Positions 40,020-64,000 of a DNA stretch of 64,000 nt are shown piece after piece. The stretch covers positions 1-64,000 of the forward strand of contig DATJGD010000063.1 of the NCBI GenBank assembly GCA_035495255.1. The letters are read 5' to 3'. The notes below the pieces were generated by a model that was not told the DNA's origin, did no database searches, and was given only the letters and a program-made list of their open reading frames with translations. Numbering within the stretch: the stretch's first letter is position 1; each line of letters begins with the position of its first letter. The DNA is from Bacteroidota bacterium. GTDB taxonomy: Bacteria > Bacteroidota > Ignavibacteria > UBA10030 > SZUA-254. The translations under genes and the position numbers were made by a program.

Positions 40020-40991
40020 ATGAACGTTTTAATTACAGGTATCGATGGGTTTGTCGGAAGCCATCTCGCCGATGCTTTGGCGGGCAGGCCCGAACTGCGG
40101 TTGTTCGGAACGACGCGTCATTCCGGTTCACCGAAGGCAAGCCACCCGCCTGCCATCCCGCTTCATCAGATCGAAATTACCGACAAGGAGCAGGTCAAGA
40201 AGGTCATTTTTGACCTCGCTCCTCAAAAACTCTTTCATATCGCCGGACAGGCATTCGTCCCGGCGGCCCTGAGCGATCCCTACGGAACATTTCGGACGAA
40301 CATCGACGGGTTGATCAATATCCTCGAAGCAGTTCGTTTGCTGCGTCTGGAGAAGCAAGTATCCTGCTCGGTGCTGGTCGTGAGCAGCAGCGAGATTTAT
40401 GCTCCGGTACCGCTTGACAAATTGCCAATCGATGAAAACACTCCTCTCATTCCGTCGAATCCGTACGCTGCGAGCAAAGCGTGCGCGGACCTCATTGCCC
40501 AGCAATACCGGGCGGCATTCGGCGTCGACGTGGTGATCGCGCGTCCGTTCAATCATCTTGGCCCGCGGCAGAGCGAGTTATTTGTCGGATCGGCGCTTGC
40601 ACGGCAAATCGCGGAGATCATCCTCAAAAAACGCGAACCGAAGCTCCTCGTCGGCAATACCGAAACGGTCAGGGATTTCACCGATGTACGCGACGTTGTG
40701 CAGGCGTATATCCGGCTCCTTGAGCGGCCGCAAAGTAAACCGGTCTTCAATGTATGCTCGGGCCGCGGAATAGCAGTCCGTGAGATCCTGGAAACGCTGT
40801 GCTCACTGAGCGGCATCGCGATCGATGTCGTGCAGGATCCGGCACGCATGCGTCATAATGAAATCTCAACTGTTATTGGAGACGCCGGGAGGCTCCGTGC
40901 GAGCACCGGCTGGTCTCCTCAGATCCCGCTGCGCCAGACGCTTCAAGACTTACTCCACTACTGGGAAGGCCGAATCCGCAATTCTGAATGA
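40020..40991 (+). CDS. NAD-dependent epimerase/dehydratase (SDR family; GDP-4-keto-6-deoxymannose reductase/Rmd-like)
   Basis: It has a GxxGxxG Rossmann motif (TGIDGFVGSHL). The PYAASK sequence provides the YxxxK catalytic dyad. Confidence 0.7.
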   Translation: MNVLITGIDGFVGSHLADALAGRPELRLFGTTRHSGSPKASHPPAIPLHQIEITDKEQVKKVIFDLAPQKLFHIAGQAFVPAALSDPYGTFRTNIDGLINILEAVRLLRLEKQVSCSVLVVSSSEIYAPVPLDKLPIDENTPLIPSNPYAASKACADLIAQQYRAAFGVDVVIARPFNHLGPRQSELFVGSALARQIAEIILKKREPKLLVGNTETVRDFTDVRDVVQAYIRLLERPQSKPVFNVCSGRGIAVREILETLCSLSGIAIDVVQDPARMRHNEISTVIGDAGRLRASTGWSPQIPLRQTLQDLLHYWEGRIRNSE

Positions 40992-42124
40992 AGATCCTCA
41001 TCTTCAACTGGCAAGACATTAAGAATCCTCAGGCCGGAGGAGCGGAGGTCCATCTCCATGAAGTGTTTTCCAGAATCGGGGGCATGGGCCACGACGTGAC
41101 GCTTTTTTGTTCAGCCTTCGAAGGCAGTGCGCCCGTCGAAGCGGTCAACAATATCCGCGTCATCAGGAAGGGGGGACGGTATCTTTTCAATTTCCTCGTC
41201 CCGTTCATGTACTGGCTCCGCTTTCGCCGCGAGAAATACGATCTCGTGATCGACGACATGAATAAAATCCCCTTCTTCACCCCGTTGTACGTTCGCGAGC
41301 CGCTCTACATTATTACCCATCATCTCTTTAAGAAAAGCATCTTTCTCGAGGTTCCGTGGCCCATCGCAATGTACGTCTACCTGACGGAGAAAGCGGGGTT
41401 CGGGTTGTGCCGCTCACGGCACATTCCCTTTATCGTCGGCTCTCCCAGCACCAAGCAGGAACTTCTCGAGATCGGCATTCCCTCCGGCGAGGTCGAGATC
41501 ATCAACTATTGCGTCGACCACAAACTCCACCGGCCCGATCCGCCGCAACGGAGTACGGCGCCGCTCATCGGATATTTCGGACGGCTGAAAAAATACAAAT
41601 CGGTTGAGCAGCTTCTCCACGCGATGGTGATCGTGCGGAAGCAGATTCCGGGACTGAATCTTGTGATTGTCGGGGAAGGGGACAACCGTCAGGCTCTCGA
41701 AAAGCTCGCGGGCGACCTGGGATTGAATTCCAACGTGAAGTTTACGGGATTCGTGGATGAGAGCGAAAAAGTTCGCTGGCTCCAGAAGGTATGGTTTGCG
41801 GTGAATACTTCTTCAAAAGAAGGATGGGGCCTGACAGTGATCGAAGCGAACGCATGCGGTACGACGGTCATCGCCAGCGACGTACCGGGTCTGCGGGACG
41901 CGGTGAAGAATAACGATACGGGCCTGCTGTATCCGTTCGGCGACGTCAACGATCTTGCCGCAAAAATCCTCCGGCTTTGTAATGATGAGGCGGAACGGAA
42001 CAGGCTTGCCAAACATGCCTACGACTGGGCCTCGACGTTTGATTGGGATGTGGCAGCCAGGAACACCCTCACGCTGCTCGAAGGACGCGTCCGTCAGCAT
42101 TCTGCGAAAAGGCAAAACCACTGA
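40988..42124 (+). CDS. Glycosyltransferase family 4
   Basis: It has a GT-B fold pattern. The C-terminal block reads EGWGLTVIEANACGTTVIASD (E-x7-E motif). It overlaps the upstream gene as ATGA. Confidence 0.8.
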   Translation: MKILIFNWQDIKNPQAGGAEVHLHEVFSRIGGMGHDVTLFCSAFEGSAPVEAVNNIRVIRKGGRYLFNFLVPFMYWLRFRREKYDLVIDDMNKIPFFTPLYVREPLYIITHHLFKKSIFLEVPWPIAMYVYLTEKAGFGLCRSRHIPFIVGSPSTKQELLEIGIPSGEVEIINYCVDHKLHRPDPPQRSTAPLIGYFGRLKKYKSVEQLLHAMVIVRKQIPGLNLVIVGEGDNRQALEKLAGDLGLNSNVKFTGFVDESEKVRWLQKVWFAVNTSSKEGWGLTVIEANACGTTVIASDVPGLRDAVKNNDTGLLYPFGDVNDLAAKILRLCNDEAERNRLAKHAYDWASTFDWDVAARNTLTLLEGRVRQHSAKRQNH

Positions 42125-43104
42125 AGAGAGAAACCGACATTCTGTTCATTGCGGCATTTCAGGCGCCGTTTGTCCAGGAAGACATCGATATTCTCTCGAA
42201 ACACTTTCGGGTAAAAACTCTTATCGGCCACGGATTCGGCCAGGTTCTGAAGATCGCGCTGGGGGTACTGCGGGCCGACGTTGTGTATTGCTGGTTCGGA
42301 TCTGTCTACGCTTCAGTCGCTGTGATGATCGCGGGGTGGATCGGTATTAAATCGGTGATCGCCATTGGAGGGGTGGATATCTCAAAAGACGAACGGCTGA
42401 ACTACGGCATCTGGACAAGCGGGTGGAAGTCGAAGTTCGTACGGTACGCGTTCCGGCATGCCAGTCGCCTTCTCGTGAGCGATCTTTCAATGAAAGCAGC
42501 TGCCATGCGGCTTGCGGAATACTCCGGCGCCAACATCGTCTATGTTCCGCCTGCCCTCGATTCAGAGTTCTGGAAACCTCTCGGGGTCAAAGAAGAGCAT
42601 ATTCTCACAGTGGCCTCCGCTGCAAACCACCAGCGCATGCGGCTGAAGGGATTCGATATTCTCACGGAAGCAGCGCGCCGCCTTCCGCAATTTACATTCC
42701 ATGTCGTGGGGGTGGACCCCACGGTGACGTTCGAACTTCAGCCCCCGGCGAACATGACGTTTTATCCGGCGAGACCCCGGAAAGAACTGCTTCCTTTTTA
42801 TCAATCGGCAAAGATCTATTGCCAGCCCTCGGTGCACGAGGCTCTCTGCTACACCCTGCGCGAGGCCATGCTCTGCGAATGTATTCCGGTAGCATCGGAA
42901 GTCGGGGGCATGACGACCGCCGTGAGCGGGATTGGCGTTCTTGTTCCGCCGGAAAATGTTGACGCGCTTGTCGGCGGCCTGCTCAGGGCGATGCGCATGA
43001 CGCACGAAGCGGGGGAAAAAGGAAGGGCCCGGATGGTGGCGCTCTACGCAAAAGAGAAGCGTGAAGCTGAGCTCCCGCGGCTCGTCGAAGGGCTGGGTTC
43101 GTGA
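42121..43104 (+). CDS. GT4-like glycosyltransferase with an unresolved start (no in-frame ATG/GTG; TTG at 42043, CTG at 42121 or ATT at 42139 are the candidates)
   Basis: The C-terminus carries the GT4 motif (HEALCYTLREAMLCECIPVASEVGG). The N-terminus begins ~TDILFIAAF right after the upstream stop. Confidence 0.5.
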   Translation: MKRETDILFIAAFQAPFVQEDIDILSKHFRVKTLIGHGFGQVLKIALGVLRADVVYCWFGSVYASVAVMIAGWIGIKSVIAIGGVDISKDERLNYGIWTSGWKSKFVRYAFRHASRLLVSDLSMKAAAMRLAEYSGANIVYVPPALDSEFWKPLGVKEEHILTVASAANHQRMRLKGFDILTEAARRLPQFTFHVVGVDPTVTFELQPPANMTFYPARPRKELLPFYQSAKIYCQPSVHEALCYTLREAMLCECIPVASEVGGMTTAVSGIGVLVPPENVDALVGGLLRAMRMTHEAGEKGRARMVALYAKEKREAELPRLVEGLGS

Positions 43105-44489
43105 GACGATTCGCCGCAAACGTAGCCTTAATTATTACGGGGGATGCGGTGCGGAGGCTCTTCGGCTTCCTCACGATTGCCTACCTTGCACGGACGATCA
43201 CCACCGCGGATTTTGGAATCATGAATATCGGATTCACCGTCTTATCGTATGCGCTCATGGCGGCTTCCGGAGGATTGTCCACGCTCGGTACCCGTGAAAT
43301 TGCCGGCGGCGCAGAACGCAGTCTTGTAGGCTCGCTGCTCGGCCTGAAATTTGTCTGCGCACTCGCCACGTATGCCATTGTTGCGGCGGTTGTTCTCGCG
43401 TTCGTCGCTTCGGCCGCGCTAAGTTCTCTCATTCTTGTCCTTTGTGGTTCATTGGTTGTGCAGGCGCTGTTTCTGGACTGGTTCTTTCAGGGGAAGGAGC
43501 AGATGCTGCCGGTGATGGTTGCGCGCTGTGCGTCGGCGGTCGTCTACTTCGTTCTCGCGATTACCCTCGTGCACTCGCCTGCGGACCTTCTGCGCATTGG
43601 AGTGGCGGCCGTCAGTTCCGACGTCATCGCGGTGTTGGCGGTGGCTGTCATGTATCAACGGGAGTTTGGCCCGTTGAAGTTCTCATCTCATCACTGGAAA
43701 GGCCTGATTCGGCGCGCAGTACCGCTTGGCAGCGGCACGATTCTCGCGCACTTCAGCATTAACCTGCCGCCGATCATTATCGGCCTGCTCATGACAAACG
43801 CGGATGTGGGAGTCTTCAGCGCCGCCGGCAAGATGGTGTTCTTCCTCCTGATGTTTGACCGCGTCCTCGGGGCCGTACTCTTGCCTGCCTCCGCCCGTCT
43901 CTTTGCGGCTGACCCGGCGAAATTGACAGAGAGGCTCGATCTCATGCAGAAATGGATTTTCATCGTAGCGCTGCCTATTTGCGCGGGCGGGACATTGCTC
44001 GCCGGTCACCTCATCCCGTTCGTCTTCGGCGAGCAATATGCGGCGGCCGTCCCCGTGTTTCAGATCTTCATTTGGTATCTGCTTGTCACGATGATCCATA
44101 CCGTCTTTACAACCTCCATCGTCGCCGTGGGAAAAGAGAAAGAGTACAGCCGGGTCATGCTCGTGAGTGCGGCTGTCTACGCGGTTTCAATCATTGTCTG
44201 CACGAAGCTGCTCGGGATTGCGGGAACTGCGGCCGCGGTTGTGGCCTCGGAGACAGTGACGCTTCTACTGATGCGACGGGCCTTTCATGCGAGCCTGAAA
44301 ACGAGCCTGCCCCGTTCTCTCCCGGCAATTGTTCTTGCCGTCATCGTTATGTCTGCGGCCGTCCTCTTGCTTGGTAATCTGCATCTTGTGCTGGTGATTC
44401 TCATCGGCGCCCTTGTCTATGCGTCGGTTCTTTTTGTCACCCGCACGCTCTCCGTCGCCGAAGTGGCCGGCCTGGTGAAACAACCATGA
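43101..44489 (+). CDS. Wzx-like oligosaccharide flippase (MOP superfamily polysaccharide biosynthesis protein), GTG start
   Basis: It has about 12-14 TM helices and a polysaccharide-biosynthesis-protein pattern. It is coupled to flanking genes by GTGA and ATGA overlaps. Confidence 0.7.
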   Translation: MRRFAANVALIITGDAVRRLFGFLTIAYLARTITTADFGIMNIGFTVLSYALMAASGGLSTLGTREIAGGAERSLVGSLLGLKFVCALATYAIVAAVVLAFVASAALSSLILVLCGSLVVQALFLDWFFQGKEQMLPVMVARCASAVVYFVLAITLVHSPADLLRIGVAAVSSDVIAVLAVAVMYQREFGPLKFSSHHWKGLIRRAVPLGSGTILAHFSINLPPIIIGLLMTNADVGVFSAAGKMVFFLLMFDRVLGAVLLPASARLFAADPAKLTERLDLMQKWIFIVALPICAGGTLLAGHLIPFVFGEQYAAAVPVFQIFIWYLLVTMIHTVFTTSIVAVGKEKEYSRVMLVSAAVYAVSIIVCTKLLGIAGTAAAVVASETVTLLLMRRAFHASLKTSLPRSLPAIVLAVIVMSAAVLLLGNLHLVLVILIGALVYASVLFVTRTLSVAEVAGLVKQP

Positions 44490-46030
44490 ACTATCACGTC
44501 GGCATTTGCGGGAAGAGCCCCGGCTGGGAGCTGTTGCTCGCGCAGGAGGGCCTGCGATGTTCTGCTTTTTCTGAGAGCGGAAGTGGCGGCAACTACTGTG
44601 CGGTTGTCGTCAGCGATAATTTTGCTGCTGACGATGGTCCGGCGCTAAAAAAGTACCTTTCGGGGGGAGGATCAATACTCTGTTCGGGGAGAGTTTTTGA
44701 GAAAACATTCGCCGGTTCAACGGTGAGCCGTTTCATTCGCTACCTTGTTGATGATGCTTCGCTTTCCGGATTCGGACTTCTGGACATTTTCACGGAAGGG
44801 AAGATCCCGGCCGGTGCAAAATATGCCCGCACCGCACACGGGAGCCCGGCGGTGTTCATCGGCGAATACGGCGGGGGAATCCTCGCAGTTCTGCCCTTCG
44901 ACCCCGGCAGCCTGGTTCTGGATCGGCGGATTATGGCGAAGTCGTTCTACACCTCCCGCAACCGCATGCCGCATGAAACGGTCTCGATGGTGTCGAAGGG
45001 GGCGCTCCGTAAATTTGTCGCCGGAATTCTGGAAAAAGTTCACCATCTTAGAAAGATTCCCTACGTACATACATGGTATTACCCGCGCGACGGACGAAGC
45101 ATTTTCGCTCTGCGGATCGATACAGACTATGGCGGCGAAGAGGAAATCAATACGTTGTACGACCTCTCGAATGAGTTTTCGACTCCCTTTTCCTGGTTTG
45201 TTCACGTCGGTTACCGGCCGTCGCTCCTCCAAAAATATAAGGACATGAACAACCATGAGATCGGGGTACATTGTTTCGACCACATCCGGTACGAGAATTC
45301 CGGTGTTATCGCCGAAGATTTGAAAAAGGCTGTTGCGTCATTTGAATCCGCGGGCATTCATCCCCGGAGTTTTGCCGCGCCGTACGGAATCTGGAATTAC
45401 GATATTGCCAGGGCGGTTGAACAATTTCACTTTGAATATTCCTCCGAATTTTGCTATGATTACGATAATCTTCCGTCGCACACGGTGACGCAACACCCCC
45501 TGCAGGCACTCCAGGTCCCGATTCACCCTGTCAGCATCGGAAGTCTCCGGCGCCAGGGTTTTTCGGAACAGGAAATGACCGGCTATTTTGCGGAGGTCAT
45601 CGAACGAAAGATTCTACTCCGCGATCCGGTCATGCTCTATCATCACCCGAACAACAGGCATGAACGTGTTCTGAGAGAAGTCATGGCCAACATCCGGCGC
45701 ACATCGCTTCCGTCGATGCGGCTCATCGATTTCGCTGAGTGGTGGAAGAAGCGGGAGAATTCGATTCCGAATATCGAACTCCGGGGGACGACATTAGGTG
45801 CCGATGGAGCCTCCTCGGATGGCGATGTCTGGCTGCACGTCACCAGGGGAGACGGGACGGAATGTTTTATTCCGCCGGCGTCTTCTATGGATTTGAATTC
45901 GGCCGGTTGGAGTGCCCGCCCGGCACCGTTATCTTTGCCGGAAGATTATGCCCGCGTTCGTAAGTACAATCCGTGGATTGCCATTAATAAATTGGAAGAT
46001 GCCGTCACGCGTATGTTCCGATCGGTGTAA
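44486..46030 (+). CDS. Polysaccharide deacetylase-like (CE4/NodB-like) protein with an N-terminal extra domain
   Basis: There are weak matches to the CE4 motifs (RIDTDYG ~ TFDDG; HEIGVHCFDH ~ HxxxxH; AAPYG ~ RPPYG; VMLYHHP ~ LxH). This call is tentative. Confidence 0.4.
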   Translation: MNYHVGICGKSPGWELLLAQEGLRCSAFSESGSGGNYCAVVVSDNFAADDGPALKKYLSGGGSILCSGRVFEKTFAGSTVSRFIRYLVDDASLSGFGLLDIFTEGKIPAGAKYARTAHGSPAVFIGEYGGGILAVLPFDPGSLVLDRRIMAKSFYTSRNRMPHETVSMVSKGALRKFVAGILEKVHHLRKIPYVHTWYYPRDGRSIFALRIDTDYGGEEEINTLYDLSNEFSTPFSWFVHVGYRPSLLQKYKDMNNHEIGVHCFDHIRYENSGVIAEDLKKAVASFESAGIHPRSFAAPYGIWNYDIARAVEQFHFEYSSEFCYDYDNLPSHTVTQHPLQALQVPIHPVSIGSLRRQGFSEQEMTGYFAEVIERKILLRDPVMLYHHPNNRHERVLREVMANIRRTSLPSMRLIDFAEWWKKRENSIPNIELRGTTLGADGASSDGDVWLHVTRGDGTECFIPPASSMDLNSAGWSARPAPLSLPEDYARVRKYNPWIAINKLEDAVTRMFRSV

Positions 46031-46075
46031 AGCTATTTTGTTGCCTGTCGTTTTAATGAACATTGAATTTCGCAT

Positions 46076-47110
46076 ATGAACGTTTGTCTCGCTAGTTACC
46101 ACTCCGTGATGATGTTGAAGGGAGGACCCCGAACGCAGATCCTTCAGACCAAACGCTGCCTTGAGCAACTTGGTGTCAACGTCTCGCTCTTCCAATCGTG
46201 GGAAGAATTCAAAAAAGACCAGGTCGACCTCCTGCATCTGTTCGGCGCGAATATCGGGACGTATCATTTCGCGCGCGAAGTGCATAAGCTTGGAATCCCG
46301 ATGGCGGTTACGCCCATCTACTTTACACGACACTCACCGCTGTTTGTACGATCGGTTCTTGGGATCGACAGAGTCGTCCGTTCCGTAGCGAGAGGAACAT
46401 GGACCGATTACGGAATTGTCGCCGAGATCTGCCGGTGGGGGAAAGCAGTCCTTCCGAATACGCTTCGGGAAGCCCGCCTGGTGGAAAAGGGACTGGGAAT
46501 TCCAGAGGAGCTCATCACGGTCGTGCCGAACGGGGTCGACGCGCGGTTTGCCAATGGGGATCCGGCACTCTTCAAGAAGCAGTATGGGATTGAATCACCG
46601 TTCGTCCTGAACGTCGGCCATATCGGCCCCGAGAGAAAGAACGTGTTCCGGCTACTCCAGGCATTGAAGAAAGTGAACGTTCCTTCGGTCATCATCGGCC
46701 GGATTGAGGACAACGCCTACGGCAGAAAATGTCTCGAAGAGGCAAAGCGTAACCCGCGTGTCCTCGTTCTCGATTCGATTCCCAACGATTCGCCGCTCCT
46801 TGCATCTGCGTATGCCGGATGTGACGTTTTCGCACTGCCTTCTCAGTTCGAAACTCCGGGTATCGCGGCCCTTGAAGCCGGTCTCGCCGGCGCGAAAGTT
46901 GTCATCACGAAATACGGCGGCACCGAAGATTATTTTGGCCCCCTTGCCGAATACGTAGAGCCCACCTCCTGGGAGCTTATTCATCACGGGATCACGACTG
47001 CGCTGAATAAGCCGAAGGATGATGAGCTTCGTCACCGCATCCGGCAGGAATTCCTTTGGGAGAGCGTCGCGAAGAAGACGCTGGAAGCTTACCAGAAGAT
47101 CCTGAGATAA
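46076..47110 (+). CDS. Glycosyltransferase family 4
   Basis: It has a GT-B fold. The C-terminal block reads ETPGIAALEAGLAGAKVVIT. Confidence 0.75.
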   Translation: MNVCLASYHSVMMLKGGPRTQILQTKRCLEQLGVNVSLFQSWEEFKKDQVDLLHLFGANIGTYHFAREVHKLGIPMAVTPIYFTRHSPLFVRSVLGIDRVVRSVARGTWTDYGIVAEICRWGKAVLPNTLREARLVEKGLGIPEELITVVPNGVDARFANGDPALFKKQYGIESPFVLNVGHIGPERKNVFRLLQALKKVNVPSVIIGRIEDNAYGRKCLEEAKRNPRVLVLDSIPNDSPLLASAYAGCDVFALPSQFETPGIAALEAGLAGAKVVITKYGGTEDYFGPLAEYVEPTSWELIHHGITTALNKPKDDELRHRIRQEFLWESVAKKTLEAYQKILR

Positions 47111-47319
47111 CAGAAAGCACCCTGATCGGCTGTTCCTGCGATGGTGTGAACCTTTCGCGTTTGGATTGAACCCTCAACTCCTGCTTTGAATGGAGCTTTC
47201 GTGAGCCTGTCTTGAATTTCTTCCCCCTTCTCTCTATATTTTAGAAACATTCTTGATGATATTGTCCGTTGTTGAGCACTGTTAGTCAAATAGAATTGCA
47301 ACAGGCGGCAGGGGAATAC

Positions 47320-49208: not shown

Positions 49209-49271
49209 CCCAACATTCTCTTTGATTCTGCCCAATTATTTTTGTATTTTGGATACAAAAAAAGACCGGAA

Positions 49272-50447: not shown

Positions 50448-50514
50448 ACTTCCTGCCCTTCGCATTGGGACATTTCGAACAGACCCTTCAGTTTCGGATG
50501 TTACGCTCCCTCGC

Positions 50515-53912: not shown

Positions 53913-53914
53913 AC

Positions 53915-54832: not shown

Positions 54833-54836
54833 GCCG

Positions 54837-55565: not shown

Positions 55566-55591
55566 TGAAGGCCGGGCGAAGGGATTTCTGA

Positions 55592-56707: not shown

Positions 56708-56886
56708 CCTTTTGACCGCATCTCCCCCTGGAATGGGGGTGAATTTCCTGCTAAATCTTCCGAATCGGAGTATTGACTCTCTCTTCGGGGAAGTCTATAT
56801 TCTTCCTGATTCTCTCTACCTCAATTCTCTCGCCGGGCGGCGGGAGAATATTCTTTCTCACAGGACGTTTCAGATGGGTACACATC

Positions 56887-58761
56887 ATGTTGAAGACTTC
56901 GCGGCTGCAACTGTTGGTACTTTTGTTTCTCGGTATCGCAACACGAGCTTACGCTGACACCCCGCGGGGGTTCGTTGCTTCGGTTCACCTGGACACGACC
57001 GCCTTTACGGATATATCTGCGGGAATGACCGGTGCCGTGTTTAGTTCCGGCGCTTGGGTCGATTATGATAACGACGGAGATCTCGATGTCTTTATTTCAG
57101 GGATTTCCCCGGGCTTCCAGTATTTTTCAAAGATCTACCGTAACGACGCCGGAAGCTTTACCGATATCAATGCCGGGCTTGCCGGTGTTCAATCCGAGCA
57201 CAATGTTGCATGGGGAGATTACGATAATGACGGAGACCTGGATCTTTTGCTGATGGGTCAGGCCGGCCCTCCGGTTTCACTGGCAATAACGAAGATTTAT
57301 CGAAATGACGGCGGCGTTTTTGTCAATATCGGCACTCCAATCCCGGGCCTGATGTACGGTTCGGCTGCCTGGGGAGACTATGACAATGACGGCGACCTGG
57401 ATATTCTTGTCACTGGATCGCCGGATCAGGGACTTTCGTTCTTCTCAAAGGTTTACAGGAACGACAACGGATCTTTCGTCGATATCAATGCAGGGCTTCC
57501 GGGGGTTTGGGGAAGTTCTGCGGTCTGGGGCGACTACGACAACGACGGGGACCTGGATATTTTTCTGAATGGGTACGGTGATCTTGGAGGTACGAGCCTG
57601 ATATTCAGAAACACGAACGGTGTTTTTACCAGTATTGGAGGTGGACTCGGCCTCAAGAATAGCGGCCAACTTGCAGTGGGGGATTTTGATAACGATGGCG
57701 ACATCGACGTTCTGTGCTCGGGAGATCACTTCGGAGCAGTAAACGCATTTACGACAATTTACAGAAATGACAACGGCACATTTGTCGACACGCATCCCGG
57801 TCTCGTGCAAGTAGAGGAAAGCGCGCAGGCATGGGGGGATTACGACAATGACGGCGACCTTGATATTCTCATCGCGGGATATCGTGACTCCGACGGAGTG
57901 TTTTTCACCAAGGTGTACAGGAACGACGGTGGGATCTTCACAGACATTGGCGCCGACCTGCCGGGTACGGCGAACGGCACCGTAGCCTGGGGCGACTACG
58001 ACAACGATGGAGATCTTGACATTCTTGTCGTCGGCGGGACAAGCGATACAGCCCCGTTTAGTCCGATCGCGCGAATTTACCGGAACAATCTCGGTTCGAA
58101 TACGTTTTCACCCAACTCTACGCCGACTATCCCTGCGAATCTCGCGTCCGCCGTGCAGGCTAACTCCGTCCGCTTGTCGTGGGACCGTTCGACTGATAGC
58201 CAAACCGATGCGCACGCTCTCACGTATAATCTCCGCGTCGGAACTCTTCCATCAGGCAGCCAAACGATCTCTCCAATGGCGAACGGAGCCACCGGATACC
58301 GGCAGATCGTCCAACTCGGAAATGCAAACCTTGACAGTTCGTGGACACTTAAGGGTCTGCCGGCAGGGACATACTACTGGAGCGTGCAGGCGATCGATAA
58401 TGCCTTTGCCGGGTCGCCATTCGGCGGAGAACAAAGCTTCGTAATAAGTCCAATGGGCGTTTCCGAGATCCCAGGATCGATACCCAGCGTGACCAGACTT
58501 GTTCAAAATTATCCAAATCCATTTAACCCGACGACGACGGTTCCGTTCGATCTCGCGCACGACGGTTCGGTGAGGATTGAGATCTATAACATCCTCGGTC
58601 AGAACGTCAAAAAGTTGGCGGAATCGGATCTCCATGCGGGACGATATGAGGCTGCGTTCAACGGATCCGATCTGCCAAGCGGCATCTACTATTGCAGGAT
58701 GACATTGCAGAGCGGAGGGAGCTCGTTCAATGAAATGAAAAAACTTGTTATGATGAAATAG
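56887..58761 (+). CDS. Secreted FG-GAP/VCBS-repeat protein (CRTAC1/ASPIC-like) with an FN3-like domain and a T9SS C-terminal sorting domain
   Basis: It has a signal peptide. There are about 8 WGDYDNDGDLD repeats. The C-terminus reads YPNPFNPTTTVPFDL..IEIYNILGQNVKKL..GIYYCRM, which is a Por_Secre_tail. Confidence 0.75.
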   Translation: MLKTSRLQLLVLLFLGIATRAYADTPRGFVASVHLDTTAFTDISAGMTGAVFSSGAWVDYDNDGDLDVFISGISPGFQYFSKIYRNDAGSFTDINAGLAGVQSEHNVAWGDYDNDGDLDLLLMGQAGPPVSLAITKIYRNDGGVFVNIGTPIPGLMYGSAAWGDYDNDGDLDILVTGSPDQGLSFFSKVYRNDNGSFVDINAGLPGVWGSSAVWGDYDNDGDLDIFLNGYGDLGGTSLIFRNTNGVFTSIGGGLGLKNSGQLAVGDFDNDGDIDVLCSGDHFGAVNAFTTIYRNDNGTFVDTHPGLVQVEESAQAWGDYDNDGDLDILIAGYRDSDGVFFTKVYRNDGGIFTDIGADLPGTANGTVAWGDYDNDGDLDILVVGGTSDTAPFSPIARIYRNNLGSNTFSPNSTPTIPANLASAVQANSVRLSWDRSTDSQTDAHALTYNLRVGTLPSGSQTISPMANGATGYRQIVQLGNANLDSSWTLKGLPAGTYYWSVQAIDNAFAGSPFGGEQSFVISPMGVSEIPGSIPSVTRLVQNYPNPFNPTTTVPFDLAHDGSVRIEIYNILGQNVKKLAESDLHAGRYEAAFNGSDLPSGIYYCRMTLQSGGSSFNEMKKLVMMK

Positions 58762-58820
58762 GATGGAAAAGACCGTTCGTTAAATCATCAGGAATTTTCT
58801 TATATTCAGGAGAGTTTGCT

Positions 58821-59588
58821 GTGGGAAACCGCGGAAACTCTCTTTTTTTAATGACAACACCCACTCAACATACCCCTGCGCGCGGAAAACCTGCCGACTA
58901 CGGCCAGGAGCTTGTTAAACGGCGATTCCGCTTAACTTCCTCGTTGGTAGATTTGCGCAACAAAACCGTCCTGGACTTTGGCTGCGGTAACGGTGCGCAA
59001 ACCATCGAATTTCTTGGCTCGGGATGCAGGATCACCGGAGTGGACATCGACCAGCAGGACCTCGATGTTCTCAAAGAATATCTTCAGTCGAACAATCTCG
59101 ATAGCATCGTGGCGGTACGTTATGACGGCTCGACGCTTCCATTGGAATCCAGTTCCTTCGACGTAATATTAAGTTACGAAGTCATCGAGCATGTTCAGAA
59201 CGAATCTCAAACGCTGGAAGAGTTGTCTCGGGTTTTGAAACCGGGGGGTGAAATGGTTATTTCGGTCCCCAACAAGGGATGGGTGTTCGAAACGCATGGC
59301 GCCAACCTGCCTCTGCTCCCATGGAACAGGGTTCCGTTCTTTTCCTGGCTGCCTCATTCGATCCACAGCCGCTTCGCGAAGGCAAGAATCTACAAGAAGA
59401 ACGAGATCATACGTCTTCTCGCCGATCACCGGTTCGATATTCTCACAACAATGTATATCACAGCGCCAATGGATGTCGTGAAGGCTCCCTGGCTGAAGAA
59501 TCTCCTTCGGTCGACCGTTTTCACCGGAGATACGACGATGGTTTCGATGTTGTCGACCTCGATTCTCATTCACTGCCGGAAGAACTAA
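58821..59588 (+). CDS. Class I SAM-dependent methyltransferase (GTG start supported by an AGGAGA SD; an alternative ATG lies at 58851)
   Basis: Motif I LDFGCGNGAQT is present. Confidence 0.7.
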   Translation: MGNRGNSLFLMTTPTQHTPARGKPADYGQELVKRRFRLTSSLVDLRNKTVLDFGCGNGAQTIEFLGSGCRITGVDIDQQDLDVLKEYLQSNNLDSIVAVRYDGSTLPLESSSFDVILSYEVIEHVQNESQTLEELSRVLKPGGEMVISVPNKGWVFETHGANLPLLPWNRVPFFSWLPHSIHSRFAKARIYKKNEIIRLLADHRFDILTTMYITAPMDVVKAPWLKNLLRSTVFTGDTTMVSMLSTSILIHCRKN

Positions 59589-59611
59589 TTCTTATCGAAT
59601 CTCACAAGAGC

Positions 59612-60733
59612 ATGAAGATAGCAGTCGTATTTGGAACACGCCCGGAGGCGATCAAGATGGCCCCGATCGTCAAAGAACTCGAGCGGCGAAAGCTCGACCA
59701 TGTCGTTATCGTTACGGCGCAGCACCGGCAGATGCTTGATCAGAAGCTGGAAGTTTTCGGAATCGTGCCCAAGTACGATCTGAACGTCATGCAGGCGAAC
59801 CAGGATCTCTTCCATGTCACGACCGCCGTGCTGAATGAAATCAAGCCGATCCTCGTCCGCGAAAAACCGGATGTCGTGCTGGTGCAGGGCGATACGACGA
59901 CGACATTCGCGGTAAGCCTCGCGGCATTTTATTTGAAAATTCCTGTGGGCCACGTCGAAGCGGGCCTGCGGACATGGGACAAACACAATCCCTATCCCGA
60001 AGAGATCAACAGGCAGCTGACGACGCGTCTGACAGAATTTCATTTTGCGCCCACTTCCTGGGGACGCAATAATCTTCTCAAAGAAGGAGTAAACCCGGAA
60101 AGCATCTACGTTACCGGGAACACCGTTATCGATGCCCTCCTTATGATGGTCGATCAAAGCTATGCGTTCACCGAACCTGAATTGAAGTCCATCGACTTTT
60201 CAACACGACGAGTATTGCTCCTGACATCGCATCGCCGCGAAAATTTCGGTGATCCGATGCGCGAAGTGTTCGGCGCCTGCCGTGAACTTGTAAAGTCCAA
60301 TCCCGATGTTGAGCTCGTCTATCCCGTTCATCCGAATCCGAACGTCCAGAAGGCGGCACACGAAATATTTGACGGCGTCGAACGGACGCATTTGATCGCG
60401 CCGATGGAATACCGCCCCTTTGTCCAGCTGATGAATAAATCCTACCTCATCCTGACGGACTCGGGAGGCGTGCAGGAGGAAGCACCCTCTCTCGGCAAGC
60501 CTGTGCTTGTCCTCCGGACGACGACGGAGCGTCCCGAAGCGATTGACGCCGGAACAGCGAAGCTCGTCGGCACCTCCGCGAGCCGCATTATCGGGGAGGC
60601 GCAGAAACTCCTGACGGATAAACGGGAATACGACTCGATGGCGACAAAGGCCAATCCGTACGGTGACGGCAAGGCCGCAGGCAAGATCGTCGACATACTG
60701 GTAGAGAAATTCGCTCAGCAGCCGCACGCCTGA
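59612..60733 (+). CDS. wecB: UDP-N-acetylglucosamine 2-epimerase (non-hydrolysing). The listed ORF 59279..60733 is over-extended upstream.
   Basis: MKIAVVFGTRPEAIKMAP.. matches the WecB family along its full length, including the HVEAGLRT and DSGGVQEEA blocks. Confidence 0.9.
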   Translation: MKIAVVFGTRPEAIKMAPIVKELERRKLDHVVIVTAQHRQMLDQKLEVFGIVPKYDLNVMQANQDLFHVTTAVLNEIKPILVREKPDVVLVQGDTTTTFAVSLAAFYLKIPVGHVEAGLRTWDKHNPYPEEINRQLTTRLTEFHFAPTSWGRNNLLKEGVNPESIYVTGNTVIDALLMMVDQSYAFTEPELKSIDFSTRRVLLLTSHRRENFGDPMREVFGACRELVKSNPDVELVYPVHPNPNVQKAAHEIFDGVERTHLIAPMEYRPFVQLMNKSYLILTDSGGVQEEAPSLGKPVLVLRTTTERPEAIDAGTAKLVGTSASRIIGEAQKLLTDKREYDSMATKANPYGDGKAAGKIVDILVEKFAQQPHA

Positions 60734-61614
60734 TGGCCACGTATTGTAATATTTGCGGCAGCGGAAACGGATTCACCCAACAAGAGCTGGGGAGAGAAGG
60801 TTGGCTTTGCAAAAACTGCAGCGCGTCCAACCGGCATCGTGCGGTCATGTACGGCCTGGGATTATGCCTCGGCTGCCTGGATAACCCGGTTGCGGCATGG
60901 AAGCCTCACAAGGAATTGAAAATCCTGGAGTCGAGCGGACGGGGCTCGTATCCGATGATGCTGAAGGATAAGTTCGACTACTATAATACGGAGTACGATC
61001 CGAACTCCGAGCTTATCCGAAAACCTTTTTCGCACATCGCCGATTTTCAGCAGCTCGCATACGGGGATTCCCAGCTCGATTTCATCATTGCGTCCGATGT
61101 CTTTGAACATGTCAGGGAAGACGAACGGGCATTCCGGGAAATGTACAGGACGCTCAAGCCTTCCGGCATTTTTGTTCTTACCGTCCCCTATGTCCATGAA
61201 TGGGAACAGACCCTTATCCGTGTGAAGGTTGAAGGAGCCAAGGATGTTCATCTTCTTCCTCCGGAGTATCACGGCGGCGGCGGCCAGACGCTCTCGTACC
61301 GGACGTATGGGCGGGATCTCATGGACCGTCTCAGGCTCCTGGGCTTTTCCGTCGCCTATGTCAACCTGGATGTTCCGGAGTGCGGTATTACCCCTCAAGC
61401 GGTATTTCTCTGTGGAAAGGCTTCGTACGTCGATCTGACTCCGATGCGCCGCGCACTGGCGCCGGCCACTTCAGCGAATCATGCCTCAGTTTCTCCGTTG
61501 ATTCCCTTCAGAGTTTTCCTGTTGTTCAAGTACAATCTTCTCTCGATGCGCCATTTTATGAAGGAAATAGTGAGAAGAATGACAGACGCCTTCAGCGGCA
61601 AGCCCAAAGCATAG
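60733..61614 (+). CDS. Class I SAM-dependent methyltransferase with an N-terminal CxxC..CxxC zinc ribbon
   Basis: CNICG..CKNC is present. A methyltransferase fold pattern is present (DFIIASDVFEHV). The start overlaps the wecB stop as TGATG. Confidence 0.6.
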   Translation: MATYCNICGSGNGFTQQELGREGWLCKNCSASNRHRAVMYGLGLCLGCLDNPVAAWKPHKELKILESSGRGSYPMMLKDKFDYYNTEYDPNSELIRKPFSHIADFQQLAYGDSQLDFIIASDVFEHVREDERAFREMYRTLKPSGIFVLTVPYVHEWEQTLIRVKVEGAKDVHLLPPEYHGGGGQTLSYRTYGRDLMDRLRLLGFSVAYVNLDVPECGITPQAVFLCGKASYVDLTPMRRALAPATSANHASVSPLIPFRVFLLFKYNLLSMRHFMKEIVRRMTDAFSGKPKA

Positions 61615-61620
61615 TCACCC

Positions 61621-62559
61621 ATGGCCGAATCTCCCACAGTCTGTTGTATCGTTCTCACATGCGGGCTACATCCCGACGGAAGGGTGAAGAAGCTCCTGTT
61701 GGACACGCTCGATTCGGTGACGAACATGACGTATCCCAACTTCAACGTCATTGTCGTGGACAATGGATCGATCGACGGAAGCCAGGATGCTGTCCGTGCG
61801 GCCTATCCCGGCATGAAGCTCATTGAAAACGGTGAGAACCTCGGCTTCATGAAAGGAAGCAATGTCGGGCTCCGGTACGCCCTTGAGCAAAAAGCCGATT
61901 GGGCGCTGCTTCTGAACAACGACATCAGTGTCGATCCTCAGATGCTGAGCGAAATGATGAAGGTAGCCGTTGCGGATGATACGGTTGGCATTGTCGCCCC
62001 CAAAATTTACTTCTTCTCCGAACCGAATAAGATATGGTACGGCGGAGGATCGATCAATTACTTTACCGGCATCATTAAACATCTCGGCCTGCGGGAAGAA
62101 GATCACGGCCAGTACGACCAGACGGTCGAAACAGGATATATCACCGGCTGCGCGATCCTCATCAGGCGTCAGGTCATGGAGAAGATCGGCCTGCTCGACC
62201 CGATTTATTCGCCGATGTACTCCGAAGATGCGGATTTTTCCGTTCGCGCCTCAAACGCCGGCTACAAGCTCATGTATGTCCCGAAAGCGAAACTCTGGCA
62301 TAAAGTTTCATCGTTTACCGGCGGGGGATTGACGCCGGTAAAAACGCGGCTGAAGGTCGAACACAATCTTATCTTTTTCAAGCGCTACGCGCGCTGGTAT
62401 CACTGGCTCACGATTCCGATCTGCATCGGATTCATGACGCTTCTCTTCGTGGTGAAAGAACTGTTCAAAGGAAACTTCGCCATCGTCGGCGCACTCGCAT
62501 CGGGGATCGGTAAATCCATCCTTTCGCTGGGGAAGCGGGTCGACTCCACGCCGGCATAA
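61621..62559 (+). CDS. Glycosyltransferase family 2
   Basis: The VVDNGSIDGS motif and a DxD-like DAD are present. The length of about 310 aa matches GT2 rhamnosyl/galactosyl-transferase-like proteins. Confidence 0.75.
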   Translation: MAESPTVCCIVLTCGLHPDGRVKKLLLDTLDSVTNMTYPNFNVIVVDNGSIDGSQDAVRAAYPGMKLIENGENLGFMKGSNVGLRYALEQKADWALLLNNDISVDPQMLSEMMKVAVADDTVGIVAPKIYFFSEPNKIWYGGGSINYFTGIIKHLGLREEDHGQYDQTVETGYITGCAILIRRQVMEKIGLLDPIYSPMYSEDADFSVRASNAGYKLMYVPKAKLWHKVSSFTGGGLTPVKTRLKVEHNLIFFKRYARWYHWLTIPICIGFMTLLFVVKELFKGNFAIVGALASGIGKSILSLGKRVDSTPA

Positions 62560-62612
62560 CCTCCCATCAGCGGCGGCGTAACCTCCCTTCAACGGCTGCA
62601 TAACCTCCCCAA
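62555..62612. repeat. Three imperfect tandem copies (period ~22 nt) of (C/G)ATAACCTCCC + ~11 nt, at the 3' end of the GT2 gene
   Basis: The sequence reads cataacctcccatcagcggcggcg / taacctcccttcaacggctg / cataacctccccaaccacctccgcg. Confidence 0.6.
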
Positions 62613-62743
62613 CCACCTCCGCGTCAACCTTTGAACGCTCGCGAACTTCGTCACACAGGTGCTTGATATTCTTTCGTTTTTTTTCTATTTTAAGCGACAA
62701 TACATGAACAACAAGGCATTCTCATCTCAATTTCTCATCGTAA

Positions 62744-63313
62744 ATGCAAGTTAAGATCGAATCGCAGCATCTCAATGGAATCGTCGTCATTATGCCGGAG
62801 GTTTTTGAGGATGCGCGAGGTTTCTTTACAGAAGTCTATCGCGAAGATCAATTTAAGCAGCTCGGTCTTCCGACTAATTTTGTCCAGGATAATCATTCCC
62901 GCTCCGTGAAGGGCGTTGTCCGCGGATTACATTTTCAATGGGAACCTCCCATGGGGAAGCTCATGCGGGTGACCATCGGGAGCGCGTTCCTGGTCGCCGT
63001 CGACATCAGGAAGAATTCTCCGACACTCGGGAAGTGGTTTGGCATCGAAGCGTCGGCGCAGAATAAGAAGCAGGTCTGGGCCCCTGCGGGGTTTGCGCGG
63101 GGCTTCTGTGTTACTTCGGATGTTGCCGAGATCCAGTATAAGTGTACCGGCATCTATAATAACGGGGGCGAGTCGGGCATCCTGTGGAACGACCCGAAGA
63201 TCGGCGTACAATGGCCGGTCGACAATCCCATTCTTTCGGGCAAAGACGAGAAAGCCCAGACGCTCGATGAGTGGCTGGTGTCCCCGAATTCTGACAAGTT
63301 TCAATATCGCTAA
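62744..63313 (+). CDS. rfbC: dTDP-4-dehydrorhamnose 3,5-epimerase
   Basis: 189 aa. The RmlC family pattern is present (..FEDARGFF.E.. ..VQDNHS.S..GVLRGLH.Q ..KLV.V..G). Confidence 0.9.
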   Translation: MQVKIESQHLNGIVVIMPEVFEDARGFFTEVYREDQFKQLGLPTNFVQDNHSRSVKGVVRGLHFQWEPPMGKLMRVTIGSAFLVAVDIRKNSPTLGKWFGIEASAQNKKQVWAPAGFARGFCVTSDVAEIQYKCTGIYNNGGESGILWNDPKIGVQWPVDNPILSGKDEKAQTLDEWLVSPNSDKFQYR

Positions 63314-63322
63314 AGGTTGTCT

Positions 63323-64000
63323 ATGAAAATTCTCATTGCCGGCGGCGCCGGCTATATCGGATCGGCCCTCGTTCCAAAACTCCTGGACAGGGGATATGAC
63401 GTTGATGTCATTGACCTGCTCTGGTTCGGGAACAATTTGCCGAAAGAGGCGCGCATCATTCAAAAAGATATTTTCAAATTGGAAGAGCAGGACCTCAAGA
63501 ATTACGAGCAGGTTATTTTCCTTGCCGGCCTTTCCAACGATCCGATGGCGGAATTTTCCCCCGGAAAGAATTTTATCTCGAATGCAGCGGCTCCGGCCTA
63601 TCTCGGCTACCTGGCAAAACGGGCCGGCGTCAAACGGTTCATTTATGCGGGATCATGTTCGGTGTACGGATATACCGTGAACGAACTGTATGACGAGCAT
63701 AGCCCCGCGGTCTCCCATTATCCGTACGGCATCTCAAAGCTTCAAGGCGAGCAGGCCGTCATGTATCTATGCGAACCGAACTTCTCGGTCATCTGCTTCC
63801 GGCAGGGGACCGTGTGCGGATTCAGTCCGCGCATGAGGCTCGATCTTGTCATCAACACGATGTTCAAGAACGCCATGCTGACGAAAGGCATCACCGTGAA
63901 TAACCCGGCGATCTGGCGTCCCATTTTGGGAGTGCAGGATGCCGTCAGCGCCTACGTCCGCGCGATCGAAGCGAATAACGAGATCTCGGGAATCTTCAAT
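63323..64000 (+). CDS. NAD-dependent epimerase/dehydratase (SDR family, UDP-sugar 4-epimerase-like). It is 5'-complete and truncated by the window end.
   Basis: MKILIAGGAGYIGSAL provides the Rossmann GxxGxxG motif, and YGISK provides the YxxxK. The reading frame stays open to position 64000, and it is absent from the ORF track because no stop falls in the window. Confidence 0.75.
   Translation, partial: MKILIAGGAGYIGSALVPKLLDRGYDVDVIDLLWFGNNLPKEARIIQKDIFKLEEQDLKNYEQVIFLAGLSNDPMAEFSPGKNFISNAAAPAYLGYLAKRAGVKRFIYAGSCSVYGYTVNELYDEHSPAVSHYPYGISKLQGEQAVMYLCEPNFSVICFRQGTVCGFSPRMRLDLVINTMFKNAMLTKGITVNNPAIWRPILGVQDAVSAYVRAIEANNEISGIFN

Follow-up and report, generated by a model that had tools for sequence, protein, structure and literature searches.

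Which envelope molecule is made or decorated by a gene cluster that encodes a flippase, many glycosyltransferases and two membrane-bound glycosyltransferases of the GT-C type, and in which no polymerase is found? This question is raised by positions 40020 to 64000 of a 64,000-nt stretch of a Bacteroidota bacterium genome (contig DATJGD010000063.1 of assembly GCA_035495255.1; the whole stretch is hereafter called the window). A preliminary description of the DNA had proposed a large glycan biosynthesis island here that decorates an existing polymer or protein on the outer face of the inner membrane. Genes were assigned by Pfam and NCBIfam profile searches, and topology, motifs and signal peptides were read from the translations. 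The region contained 21 open reading frames (ORFs), all on the + strand and with overlaps or gaps of 0-210 nt, and nearly all of them were assigned to glycan synthesis, so that a large glycan biosynthesis cluster was borne out. None of the glycosyltransferases or methyltransferases reached a cut-off for equivalog-level naming by NCBIfam, the sole curated cut-off that was reached being that of RmlD, encoded just beyond the window. The best explanation, which we regard as probable, is a chromosomal envelope glycan locus of an uncultured, Ignavibacteria-like soil bacterium, with a mosaic make-up and not one pathway: a conserved backbone, variable cassettes and passenger genes.

The conserved backbone

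The backbone would comprise a DUF2723/TMEM260-like GT-C enzyme, two GtrB/ArnC/PgfS-type synthases (GT2a and GT2b), a YfhO-family GT-C enzyme, a GT9-like enzyme, the methyltransferase MT2 and the glycosyltransferase GT4d. It was compared across 27 genome loci with YfhO homologues and with the closest relative, L039 (JGI Ga0247727_10000316, 116.8 kb; also GCA_974761725.1). The gene for the DUF2723/TMEM260-like enzyme (37213-39966, + strand, 917 aa) belongs to the conserved backbone though it lies 5' of 40020, and the earlier claim of a DUF2723 GT-C protein just upstream of the region was confirmed (PF11028, E 3.8e-49; DUF2723 protein HTK82413 at NCBI). The protein has about 11 transmembrane (TM) helices and a large periplasmic C-terminal region. 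When compared to the structure of human TMEM260 (9rql), the N-terminal GT-C module was aligned with an E value of 6.7e-17, and D34, H49 and D551 aligned with D52, H67 and D441 of the human enzyme. D52 and H67 of human TMEM260 bind the donor, and D441 is the catalytic base and is located in a luminal domain that positions an extended peptide. The conserved equivalent of D441 thus favours a protein acceptor for the DUF2723/TMEM260-like enzyme. No TPR family was found by Pfam in residues 590-917, and the orthologue in a relative has a precomputed match to PF28495 (TMEM260_2).

The second GT-C enzyme, of the YfhO family (51606-53912, + strand, 768 aa; HTK82424 at NCBI), scored 53.5 bits with PF09586 (gathering score 28.5; E 1.9e-14) and has about 12 TM helices. 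Its first loop carries the motif FFWEDF, the family form being (F/L)W(E/D)DF, and the Asp was invariant in 26 homologues. A sequence search for a solved YfhO structure returned none. Judged by these motifs, it is plausible that both the YfhO and the DUF2723 enzyme are competent in catalysis. In the literature that was searched, no bacterial DUF2723 protein had been characterised, and no work on YfhO from a Gram-negative bacterium was found.

The YfhO gene is flanked by GT2a, 1.1 kb upstream, and by GT2b, 2 nt downstream. Both encode a GT-A domain and two C-terminal TM helices, in agreement with the DPM1/GtrB type that the preliminary description had given to two GT2 enzymes. GT2a (49272-50447, + strand; PF00535, E 5e-37) is of the GtrB/ArnC type and aligned over its full length with the ArnC (197 bits) and PgfS (172 bits) models, and GT2b (53915-54832, + strand; PF00535, E 1e-34) is of the GtrB/PgfS type and did so with the PgfS (262 bits) and ArnC (185 bits) models, all of these scores being under the equivalog cut-offs. 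GT2a also has an N-terminal extension of about 90 aa (49272-49540), which is rich in Q, P and R, of low complexity and highly charged, and which is retained in the closest relative (388 aa, 80% identity). Between 37213 and 64000 there was no small multi-TM ORF left without assignment that could encode a GtrA/GtcA-type flippase, and such a flippase could be encoded elsewhere.

Between GT2a and YfhO lies the gene for a GT9-like glycosyltransferase of the GT-B type (50515-51609, + strand), which is joined to the YfhO gene by an ATGA overlap and which scored 28.6 bits with PF01075 (gathering score 22). The AF2 model of the protein had a pLDDT of 82, and the best Foldseek matches were 3tov (E 4e-14), WaaC (1e-13) and WaaF (3e-12). 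By sequence, the protein was far under the WaaC and WaaF equivalog cut-offs, with 51 bits for TIGR02193 (cut-off 185) and 35 bits for TIGR02195 (cut-off 135). The family is large and strongly conserved, with more than 4000 homologues of which the top 120 were all at least 67% identical. Two groups of cysteines (C12, C21, C31 and C39, and C330, C332, C338 and C342) were invariant or nearly so in 32 homologues, which suggests that they form metal sites; AF2 placed the N-terminal group without confidence. The eight cysteines had raised the idea of an iron-finger protein heptosyltransferase of the TibC type, and this was rejected when TibC matched with an E value of 4.5e-7 compared to about 1e-13 for WaaC, WaaF and 3tov.

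The backbone operon ends with MT2 and GT4d. MT2 (54837-55565, + strand; PF13489, E 4e-16) is a class I S-adenosylmethionine (SAM) methyltransferase whose family is large, with 1,873 representatives at E <= 1e-30, and consists of stand-alone proteins about 245 aa long. An orthologue of MT2 is located immediately 5' of YfhO in five Kapabacteria-type loci, with a gap of 1 nt, and a homologue lies beside a PMT_2-family GT-C enzyme in another Bacteroidota genome (L035). The MT2 domain was also found fused to a GT2 domain, both in L009 (8483-9928), directly upstream of YfhO, and in the independent 509-aa protein P0497. By the Rosetta-stone argument, these GT2::MT2 fusions are evidence for a joint action of the methyltransferase with the sugar-lipid synthase. 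GT4d (55592-56707, + strand; PF13692 and PF00534, E 3e-24) is the last gene of the operon and also follows YfhO, GT2b and MT2 in L004-L007 and L039 (60-72% identity).

The gene order of the window clade, [GtrB]-GT9-YfhO-[GtrB]-[MT2]-GT4d, recurred in L005-L007 and L039 at 42-84% identity. Other lineages showed related arrangements. Five Ignavibacteriota metagenome-assembled genomes (MAGs) have lepA-lepB-hemW-DUF2723-DUF2723-GT2-YfhO-GT9; L009 has DUF2723, the GT2::methyltransferase fusion as a single ORF, YfhO and GT9; the five Kapabacteria-type MAGs have the MT2-like gene and YfhO with the 1-nt gap and then lptF/G; and L030 has DUF2723-YfhO-GT4-(10-TM protein)-GtrB-GT4. Over the whole set, a DUF2723 gene adjoins YfhO in 8 other loci and a GT2 gene adjoins it in at least 10. 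The block at 40020-49208 of the window sits between the DUF2723 gene and GtrB/GT9/YfhO, where other lineages have nothing. In two relatives, L005 (5329-7278) and L004 (1-1131), extra multi-TM proteins with a C-terminal TPR region are encoded beside YfhO, the protein of L005 having 11 TM helices; these proteins match no catalytic family in Pfam and may be further GT-C-like enzymes.

In the mechanism that we propose, GT2a and GT2b would each load single sugars onto undecaprenyl phosphate at the cytoplasmic face of the membrane, and after flipping, YfhO and the TMEM260-like GT-C enzyme would transfer these sugars to periplasmic acceptors. We infer the donor sugars and the order of the steps from the enzyme families and their topology. 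The core of a GtrB-type or soluble GT2, MT2, YfhO and GT9, often together with one or two DUF2723 genes, could even be an undescribed extracytoplasmic system of Gram-negative Ignavibacteria, Kapabacteria and their relatives, in which a monosaccharide is methylated on undecaprenyl phosphate, flipped and transferred by a GT-C enzyme to envelope proteins or lipopolysaccharide (LPS), but we consider this rather unlikely. The GT2::MT2 fusions, the MT2-YfhO pairs with a 1-nt gap and the MT2 homologue beside the PMT_2 GT-C enzyme are what suggest a methylated donor. The tailoring of lipid-linked donors before GT-C transfer has a precedent in pentofuranose three-component systems (PMC11127046), and the arrangement suggests the idea that methyl-sugars may reach the periplasm as ready-methylated lipid-linked donors.

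Variable cassettes and passenger genes

The first variable cassette, SDR1-GT4a-GT4b-Wzx-CE4-GT4c (40020-47110), is located after the DUF2723 gene and ahead of the other backbone genes. It had been described as six genes linked by ATGA or GTGA overlaps, and this held for three of the five junctions, where clean 4-nt overlaps were found (ATGA at 40988, GTGA at 43101 and ATGA at 44486). The junction between GT4a and GT4b reads CTGA, and GT4c follows a gap of 45 nt. SDR1 (40020-40991, + strand) encodes an SDR-family NDP-sugar 4,6-dehydratase/epimerase (PF16363, E 7e-63; PF01370, E 1e-53) that reached no equivalog cut-off in NCBIfam, and its stop codon overlaps the start of the glycosyltransferase GT4a (40988-42124, + strand; PF00534, E 6.8e-43). 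The start of the glycosyltransferase GT4b (42043-43104, + strand; PF00534, E 7e-15) is uncertain: the sole canonical start is a TTG at 42043, which gives an overlap of 82 nt with GT4a, and the alternative is a non-canonical CTG at 42121. The orthologue of GT4b in the closest relative is 294 aa long. The next gene, joined by the GTGA overlap, encodes a Wzx-type lipid-linked oligosaccharide flippase of the MOP family (43101-44489, + strand; PF01943, E 1e-26; PF13440, E 2e-18; MOP flippase model NF007773, E 3e-13) with about 10-12 TM helices. It is followed by a gene for a 514-aa cytoplasmic protein (44486-46030, + strand) with a central CE4 (polysaccharide deacetylase) domain (residues 214-318; PF01522, E 3e-7) between N- and C-terminal domains without an assignment, the translation of which has neither a TM helix nor a signal peptide and shows weak matches to chitin deacetylases in the PDB. 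The glycosyltransferase GT4c (46076-47110, + strand; PF00534, E 3e-19) ends the operon. An Arn-like pathway for lipid A aminoarabinose, to which the ArnC-like GT2 and the CE4 domain had pointed, was rejected because no ArnA formyltransferase/decarboxylase, ArnB aminotransferase or ArnT was found.

The second variable cassette would consist of MT3-WecB-MT4-GT2c-RmlC-SDR2 and continue beyond the window with RmlD, Gmd and a second flippase. MT3 (58851-59588, + strand; PF08241, E 1e-23) is a class I SAM methyltransferase, WecB (59612-60733, + strand; PF02350, E 1e-120; 373 aa on other contigs) a UDP-GlcNAc 2-epimerase that forms ManNAc, and MT4 (60733-61614, + strand; PF08241, E 6.5e-12) a class I SAM methyltransferase with an N-terminal zinc ribbon (CxxC...CxxC). 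GT2c (61621-62559, + strand; PF00535, E 2.5e-21) falls in a rhamnosyltransferase-like subfamily, with 63 bits for TIGR01556, which is under the cut-off. RmlC (62744-63313, + strand; PF00908, E 8e-63) is a dTDP-4-dehydrorhamnose 3,5-epimerase, and the SDR2 epimerase/reductase (63323-64000, + strand; PF01370, E 2.5e-29; 318 aa in full) is cut by the end of the window. The next 3.2 kb (L001), read from metagenome contigs that are identical to the end of the window, contain the rest of SDR2, RmlD (310 bits for TIGR01214, cut-off 224) and the classical GDP-mannose 4,6-dehydratase Gmd, and end with the first 34 codons of a second flippase, which match the N-terminus of the 434-aa MOP flippase of L007. 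The short soil-metagenome contigs found by exact matching stop 100-230 nt into this flippase gene, and a scan of the metagenome collection with exact 31-mers yielded no contig besides the one already found. Three tandem 22-nt repeats (62545-62609; consensus ..GC(A/G)TAACCTCCC) span the stop codon of GT2c, and a promoter-like site (62663-62691) follows them ahead of rmlC.

The gene content named in the preliminary description was largely recovered. The GT9-like protein, the YfhO GT-C enzyme, the Wzx flippase, the CE4 domain and the desaturase-like gene were each matched by a Pfam profile, as were wecB, rmlC and the two SDR genes. The glycosyltransferase counts came out lower, with four GT4 enzymes where five had been listed and three GT2 enzymes where four had been listed; weak GT4-like Pfam matches of WecB may account for one miscount. 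rmlC had been read as a gene for dTDP-rhamnose, and RmlC and the off-window RmlD agree with this. However, neither rmlA nor rmlB was found in the window or in the 3.2-kb extension, and Gmd is present, so the 6-deoxyhexose chemistry is wider than dTDP-rhamnose alone.

With these genes, one or more short oligosaccharides would be built up on undecaprenyl (pyro)phosphate by the GT4 and GT2 enzymes, from UDP-ManNAc (WecB), dTDP- or GDP-6-deoxyhexoses (RmlC/D, Gmd and the SDR enzymes) and a sugar from which the CE4 protein may have removed an N-acetyl group. The intermediates would be modified by methyltransferases in the cytoplasm before the MOP flippases move them to the periplasmic face of the membrane.

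The cassettes are the part of the locus that differs between relatives. The closest relative keeps the order from DUF2723 to RmlD at 46-86% protein identity and is without the FG-GAP gene (described below), MT3, MT4 and Gmd. Its Wzx (54% identical), CE4 protein (46%), GT2c (46%) and YfhO (63%) are more divergent than their neighbours (72-86%), which resembles the usual pattern for specificity-determining genes of surface glycans. After RmlD, the relative continues with a MOP flippase, an 829-aa lipoprotein with LamG domains, an FkbM-type methyltransferase, another MOP flippase, two small proteins, a C-methyltransferase-type enzyme and a further GT9-like protein. Its locus is still running 10 kb downstream and has three flippases in it. 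By this comparison, the locus would extend over more than 27 kb in this genome and over 41 kb or more in the nearest relative, and the window would hold roughly its first two-thirds; the downstream boundary is drawn from this one syntenic relative.

Two passengers would complete the mosaic, a desaturase-like/zinc-ribbon methyltransferase pair that is probably lipid-tailoring and a gene for a cargo protein of the type IX secretion system (T9SS). The first gene of the pair (47320-48279, + strand; PF00487, E 1e-22) encodes a membrane di-iron enzyme of the FA_desaturase family with His boxes in the sequence, and its stop codon is overlapped by the start of MT1 (48279-49208, + strand; PF13489, E 2e-18), a class I SAM methyltransferase with an N-terminal zinc ribbon (CxxC...CxxC). 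The desaturase-like family is about 50% identical in cyanobacteria, proteobacteria, Planctomycetota, myxobacteria and Bacteroidota. An MT1 orthologue, 54-77% identical over the full length including the zinc ribbon, was located directly 3' of the desaturase-like gene in 5 of 6 contexts. The pair was found in L034, L035, L036 and L038, where the MT1 orthologues are 54-65% identical, and is conserved at 45-65% identity across phyla. Its contexts were mostly not glycan loci: it stood near PATR/PEP-CTERM proteins, alone, or beside a second desaturase, and once (L036) directly upstream of YfhO. Because this two-gene cassette spans phyla and lies mostly outside glycan loci, MT1 is probably part of a lipid- or small-molecule-tailoring cassette and not a sugar methyltransferase.

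The four SAM methyltransferases, two of them (MT1 and MT4) with zinc ribbons, were confirmed, and heavy O-methylation of the glycan had been predicted from them. They do not form one functional set, however: MT1 travels as a passenger, MT2 belongs with YfhO and GT2, and MT3 and MT4 are variable. The possibility that the methyltransferases are unrelated small-molecule enzymes therefore applies in part, to MT1 of the four. MT3 and MT4 are generic class I enzymes that stand among sugar genes and vary between relatives. The richness in methyltransferases is a property of the clade: the closest relative has the FkbM-type and C-methyltransferase-type enzymes in place of MT3 and MT4. It is not exceptional either, since the O-glycan cluster of T. 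forsythia has three methyltransferases in 27 kb. SAM is cytoplasmic, and none of the four methyltransferases has a signal peptide, so any sugar methylation must be cytoplasmic and precede flipping.

The T9SS cargo gene (56887-58761, + strand; HTK82428 at NCBI) is a component of the cluster that the earlier gene list did not contain. It encodes a secreted FG-GAP beta-propeller with a signal peptide, six repeats (PF13517, E 7e-36), which recur at about 156-nt spacing in the gene, and a type A T9SS C-terminal sorting domain (PF18962, E 9e-10). A promoter-like site (56773-56801, 10 of 12 matches) and then an 11-bp GC-rich hairpin (56824-56849) precede the gene, which suggests that it is a separate transcription unit. 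Promoter-like sites were present in the gaps of 160-210 nt (47110-47320, 56707-56887 and 62559-62744); the scan for sigma-70 promoters and terminators is of limited value in this phylum and served only as a hint for the FG-GAP gene. In L006, two similar genes follow the same backbone. The closest relative encodes, in place of the FG-GAP cargo, the 829-aa lipoprotein (12304-14793) with three LamG (concanavalin-like) domains and CPPPPP linkers. Each of three well-sampled loci of the window clade embeds a large secreted protein. The FG-GAP cargo was considered as an obvious glycosylation substrate and rejected, as it has no Ser/Thr-rich disordered region and no enrichment of the sequon D(S/T)(A/I/L/V/M/T) (2 observed, 3.4 expected). 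This motif, which is that of Bacteroidetes and may not be the one of this lineage, was not enriched in three of four tested proteins, among them the FG-GAP and LamG proteins, and occurred 12 times against 6 expected in L006a, so that the sequon is a weak test here.

The acceptor and the alternative explanations

Periplasmic decoration, as first proposed, was supported by the GtrB-type synthases and the two GT-C enzymes, which point to periplasmic transfer. It does not cover the whole locus, since four GT4 enzymes, one GT2 enzyme, Wzx and the second flippase also provide for at least one oligosaccharide, and probably several, assembled in the cytoplasm and flipped. For the acceptor, our tentative choice is the Ser/Thr residues of envelope or secreted proteins, at any rate in the case of the TMEM260-like enzyme. 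The LPS core comes close behind as a possible acceptor, although we would doubt it sooner than accept it. Several observations weigh against protein glycosylation or against the proposed locus as a whole. A GT9-family gene lies by YfhO in 14 of the 27 loci, and lptF/G lie by YfhO in the Kapabacteria-type loci, both of which point to LPS and not to protein. The embedded FG-GAP protein, as described above, has neither sequon enrichment nor Ser/Thr-rich disorder, and Wzx scored 27 bits with the O-glycosylation flippase model NF058658, for which the cut-off is 720. An initiating phosphoglycosyltransferase, a GtrA-type flippase, a ligase and an oligosaccharyltransferase were not found in the available sequence, and a Wzy or WaaL gene may be located elsewhere in the genome. 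Finally, the synteny comes largely from related MAGs and is partly non-independent.

If the undescribed system with methylated donors exists and acts on proteins, its TMEM260 homologue would be the first protein O-glycosyltransferase of this family from a prokaryote. GT-C enzymes of the YfhO type have been studied only in Firmicutes and those of the TMEM260 type only in humans, and here both are part of a conserved syntenic module across a Gram-negative lineage. Together with the polyprenyl-phosphate sugar synthase, the methyltransferase and the GT9-like enzyme, they are candidate enzymes for modifying LPS or O-glycosylating proteins in the FCB group. As late as 2022, the enzyme responsible for attaching O-glycans to proteins in Bacteroidota was reported to be unknown (PMC8729774).

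The alternative explanations differ in where the assembled sugars end up. In a locus for the LPS core or lipooligosaccharide (LOS), the GT9-like, GT4 and GT2 enzymes would extend lipid A-Kdo on the cytoplasmic side, a single O-unit flipped by Wzx would be ligated without being polymerised, and YfhO would add a sugar from undecaprenyl phosphate to periplasmic LPS in the manner of ArnT or GtrC. The frequent GT9-family genes a few genes from YfhO and the lptF/G genes after YfhO speak for such a locus, as does the GT9-like family, which shows the strong conservation to be expected of a housekeeping enzyme of the envelope and has a fold nearest to WaaC and WaaF. A similar arrangement is known from the LOS cluster of B. 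thetaiotaomicron, where a GT9 gene comes first and 13 glycosyltransferases, tailoring enzymes and a GtrA-like protein are encoded without a polymerase (PMC5850320). However, the window contains no WaaL ligase, Kdo transferase, LPS kinase or gene for ADP-heptose synthesis (gmhA, hldE, gmhB), and the GT9-like protein is, as noted, far under the WaaC and WaaF cut-offs. Moreover, the Cys-rich GT9 of the window and the L008-type GT9 are different subfamilies with no BLAST match between them, and DUF2723/TMEM260-like enzymes have only protein as an acceptor on record, the catalytic base in the peptide-positioning domain being conserved here. An LPS core or LOS locus is thus possible, and we lean against it. 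We find a canonical Wzx/Wzy locus for an O-antigen or capsule, with the polymerase, regulator and export genes further downstream or elsewhere, to be very unlikely. Such loci usually contain Wzx, several GT4 and GT2 enzymes and genes for sugar nucleotides, the present locus runs past the window, and Wzy is often missed by Pfam. Yet all multi-TM proteins encoded in the window and in the next 10 kb of the relative were assigned (to MOP, YfhO, DUF2723 or the GtrB type), and the three flippases in the locus of the relative point to several short glycans and not to one polymer. Wzy, Wzz, Wza, Wzc and an initiating phosphoglycosyltransferase such as WbaP were found nowhere in the 64-kb window, nor in the 3.2 kb beyond it, nor in the 10 kb downstream in the closest relative. 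The absence of Wzy, Wzz, Wza and Wzc that had been noted before thus extended past the window as far as the sequence could be read. With no polymer machinery a classical capsule locus is unlikely, and as no genes for a polymerase, for chain-length control or for export through the outer membrane are present, the product would be an oligosaccharide rather than a capsule.

An A-LPS-type glycan that anchors T9SS cargo, which had been named as a candidate together with a T9SS anchoring glycan, found no specific support and is in our view highly improbable. A gene for T9SS cargo with a type A C-terminal domain does lie inside the locus, L006 has a pair of them behind the same backbone, and P. gingivalis depends on a GT9-like 'rfa' gene for A-LPS. 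But no Wbp/Vim linking-sugar, WaaL, Wzy, WzzP or PorU/PorZ gene was found in the window, the cargo gene is preceded by a promoter-like site and a hairpin of its own, and the closest syntenic relative lacks it. FG-GAP proteins and proteins with the C-terminal domain also appear to be common in loci of related MAGs (for example L019 and L023), so their adjacency weighs little. The remaining alternative is that there is no single system at all and that independent envelope-glycan operons share a neighbourhood downstream of lepA-lepB-hemW. The mosaic structure, the 160-210 nt gaps with promoter-like sites, and the separable desaturase-like/MT1 pair and FG-GAP gene are in line with this. It is nevertheless unlikely, as the 21 genes run in one direction without exception, the relative preserves the gene order between DUF2723 and RmlD at the identities given above, and DUF2723, GT2, MT2, GT9 and YfhO co-occur repeatedly in distant lineages.

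Known systems and the surroundings of the locus

The window shares parts with each of several known systems and at locus level is a full member of none. The locus as proposed here would be one more surface-glycan cluster of an ordinary kind, and its less familiar part is the conserved core of membrane enzymes. In the three-component systems (GtrA/B/C of Shigella and Salmonella; ArnC/ArnE-F/ArnT; CsbB/GtcA/YfhO of Bacillus and Listeria; GtrB/PgtC2 and PgfS/PgfM1 of streptococci), a GT2 enzyme with two TM helices is encoded beside a GT-C enzyme, as it is here. The best curated match of GT2b is PgfS and that of GT2a is ArnC, and the GT-C enzyme is of the YfhO family with the Asp in loop 1. YfhO together with GtrB or PgfS glycosylates teichoic acids (PMC5836110) and Ser/Thr-rich protein regions (PMC12041528), and the secreted adhesins that serve as substrates are encoded within the streptococcal pgf operon itself (PMC12041528). 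In contrast to these systems, the locus is Gram-negative, has no GtrA/GtcA flippase, has two synthases and two unrelated GT-C enzymes, and has the MT2 methyltransferase and the GT9-like enzyme as constant companions.

Human TMEM260 is a protein O-mannosyltransferase (PMC10214176). The locus protein shares with it the N-terminal GT-C module and the equivalents of D52, H67 and D441, and differs in that Pfam finds no TPR in the last 350 aa. Dol-P-Man is the donor of TMEM260, whereas that of the locus enzyme would be an undecaprenyl-phosphate sugar. The deposited 9rql chain has 729 residues, compared to 917 aa for the locus protein. Human TMEM260 itself is 707 aa long.

The 27-kb cluster for the protein O-glycan of T. 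forsythia contains wzx, five GT-A or GT-B glycosyltransferases, three methyltransferases and wecB and has no polymerase (PMC6120980). It is a co-directional cluster of similar size with a methylated oligosaccharide as product, from the same phylum (in the sense of GTDB), and the lfg loci of Bacteroides are grouped with it. The T. forsythia cluster is without GtrB-type synthases, GT-C enzymes and GT9, and it has genes for Pse and ManNAcA synthesis, which are absent in the locus; the Wzx of the locus also does not match the flippase model NF058658, as mentioned above. The LOS cluster of B. thetaiotaomicron (BT3362-BT3380; PMC5850320) shares a GT9-type gene, many glycosyltransferases, tailoring enzymes, a Gtr-type component and the lack of a polymerase. 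It differs by having an LPS kinase and no Wzx, whereas the locus has no kinase and has MOP flippases and two GT-C enzymes.

The region is a chromosomal gene cluster and not a mobile island. The GC content was flat across the locus (0.52-0.575, compared to a window mean of about 0.53), no tRNA gene, integrase or flanking direct repeats were found at the locus, and a mobile-island origin was rejected on these grounds; the term island thus fits as a name for a gene cluster and not for a mobile element. An Rfam scan gave no match within the locus. LepA of the window (HTK82409 at NCBI) is 80-82% identical to LepA of Ignavibacteriota MAGs, the nearest YfhO homologues are from Ignavibacteriales, Ignavibacteriota and Kapabacteria MAGs, and sequence-identical fragments of the locus occur in soil metagenomes.

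Directly 5' of the DUF2723 gene, the window has the order lepA-lepB(-lepB)-hemW (32653-37133) with two tandem signal peptidase I genes, and this order, directly 5' of one or more DUF2723 genes, is conserved in Ignavibacteriota MAGs (L008, L010, L013 and L017). The first 32 kb of the window consist of housekeeping genes. A TPP riboswitch (RF00059, 71.7 bits) was found at 18030-18130 on the - strand, and downstream of it, on the same strand, are genes for a TonB-dependent receptor (15733-17973), a thiamin pyrophosphokinase (15094-15729) and a sodium:solute symporter (13679-15097), which together look like a thiamine-scavenging operon.

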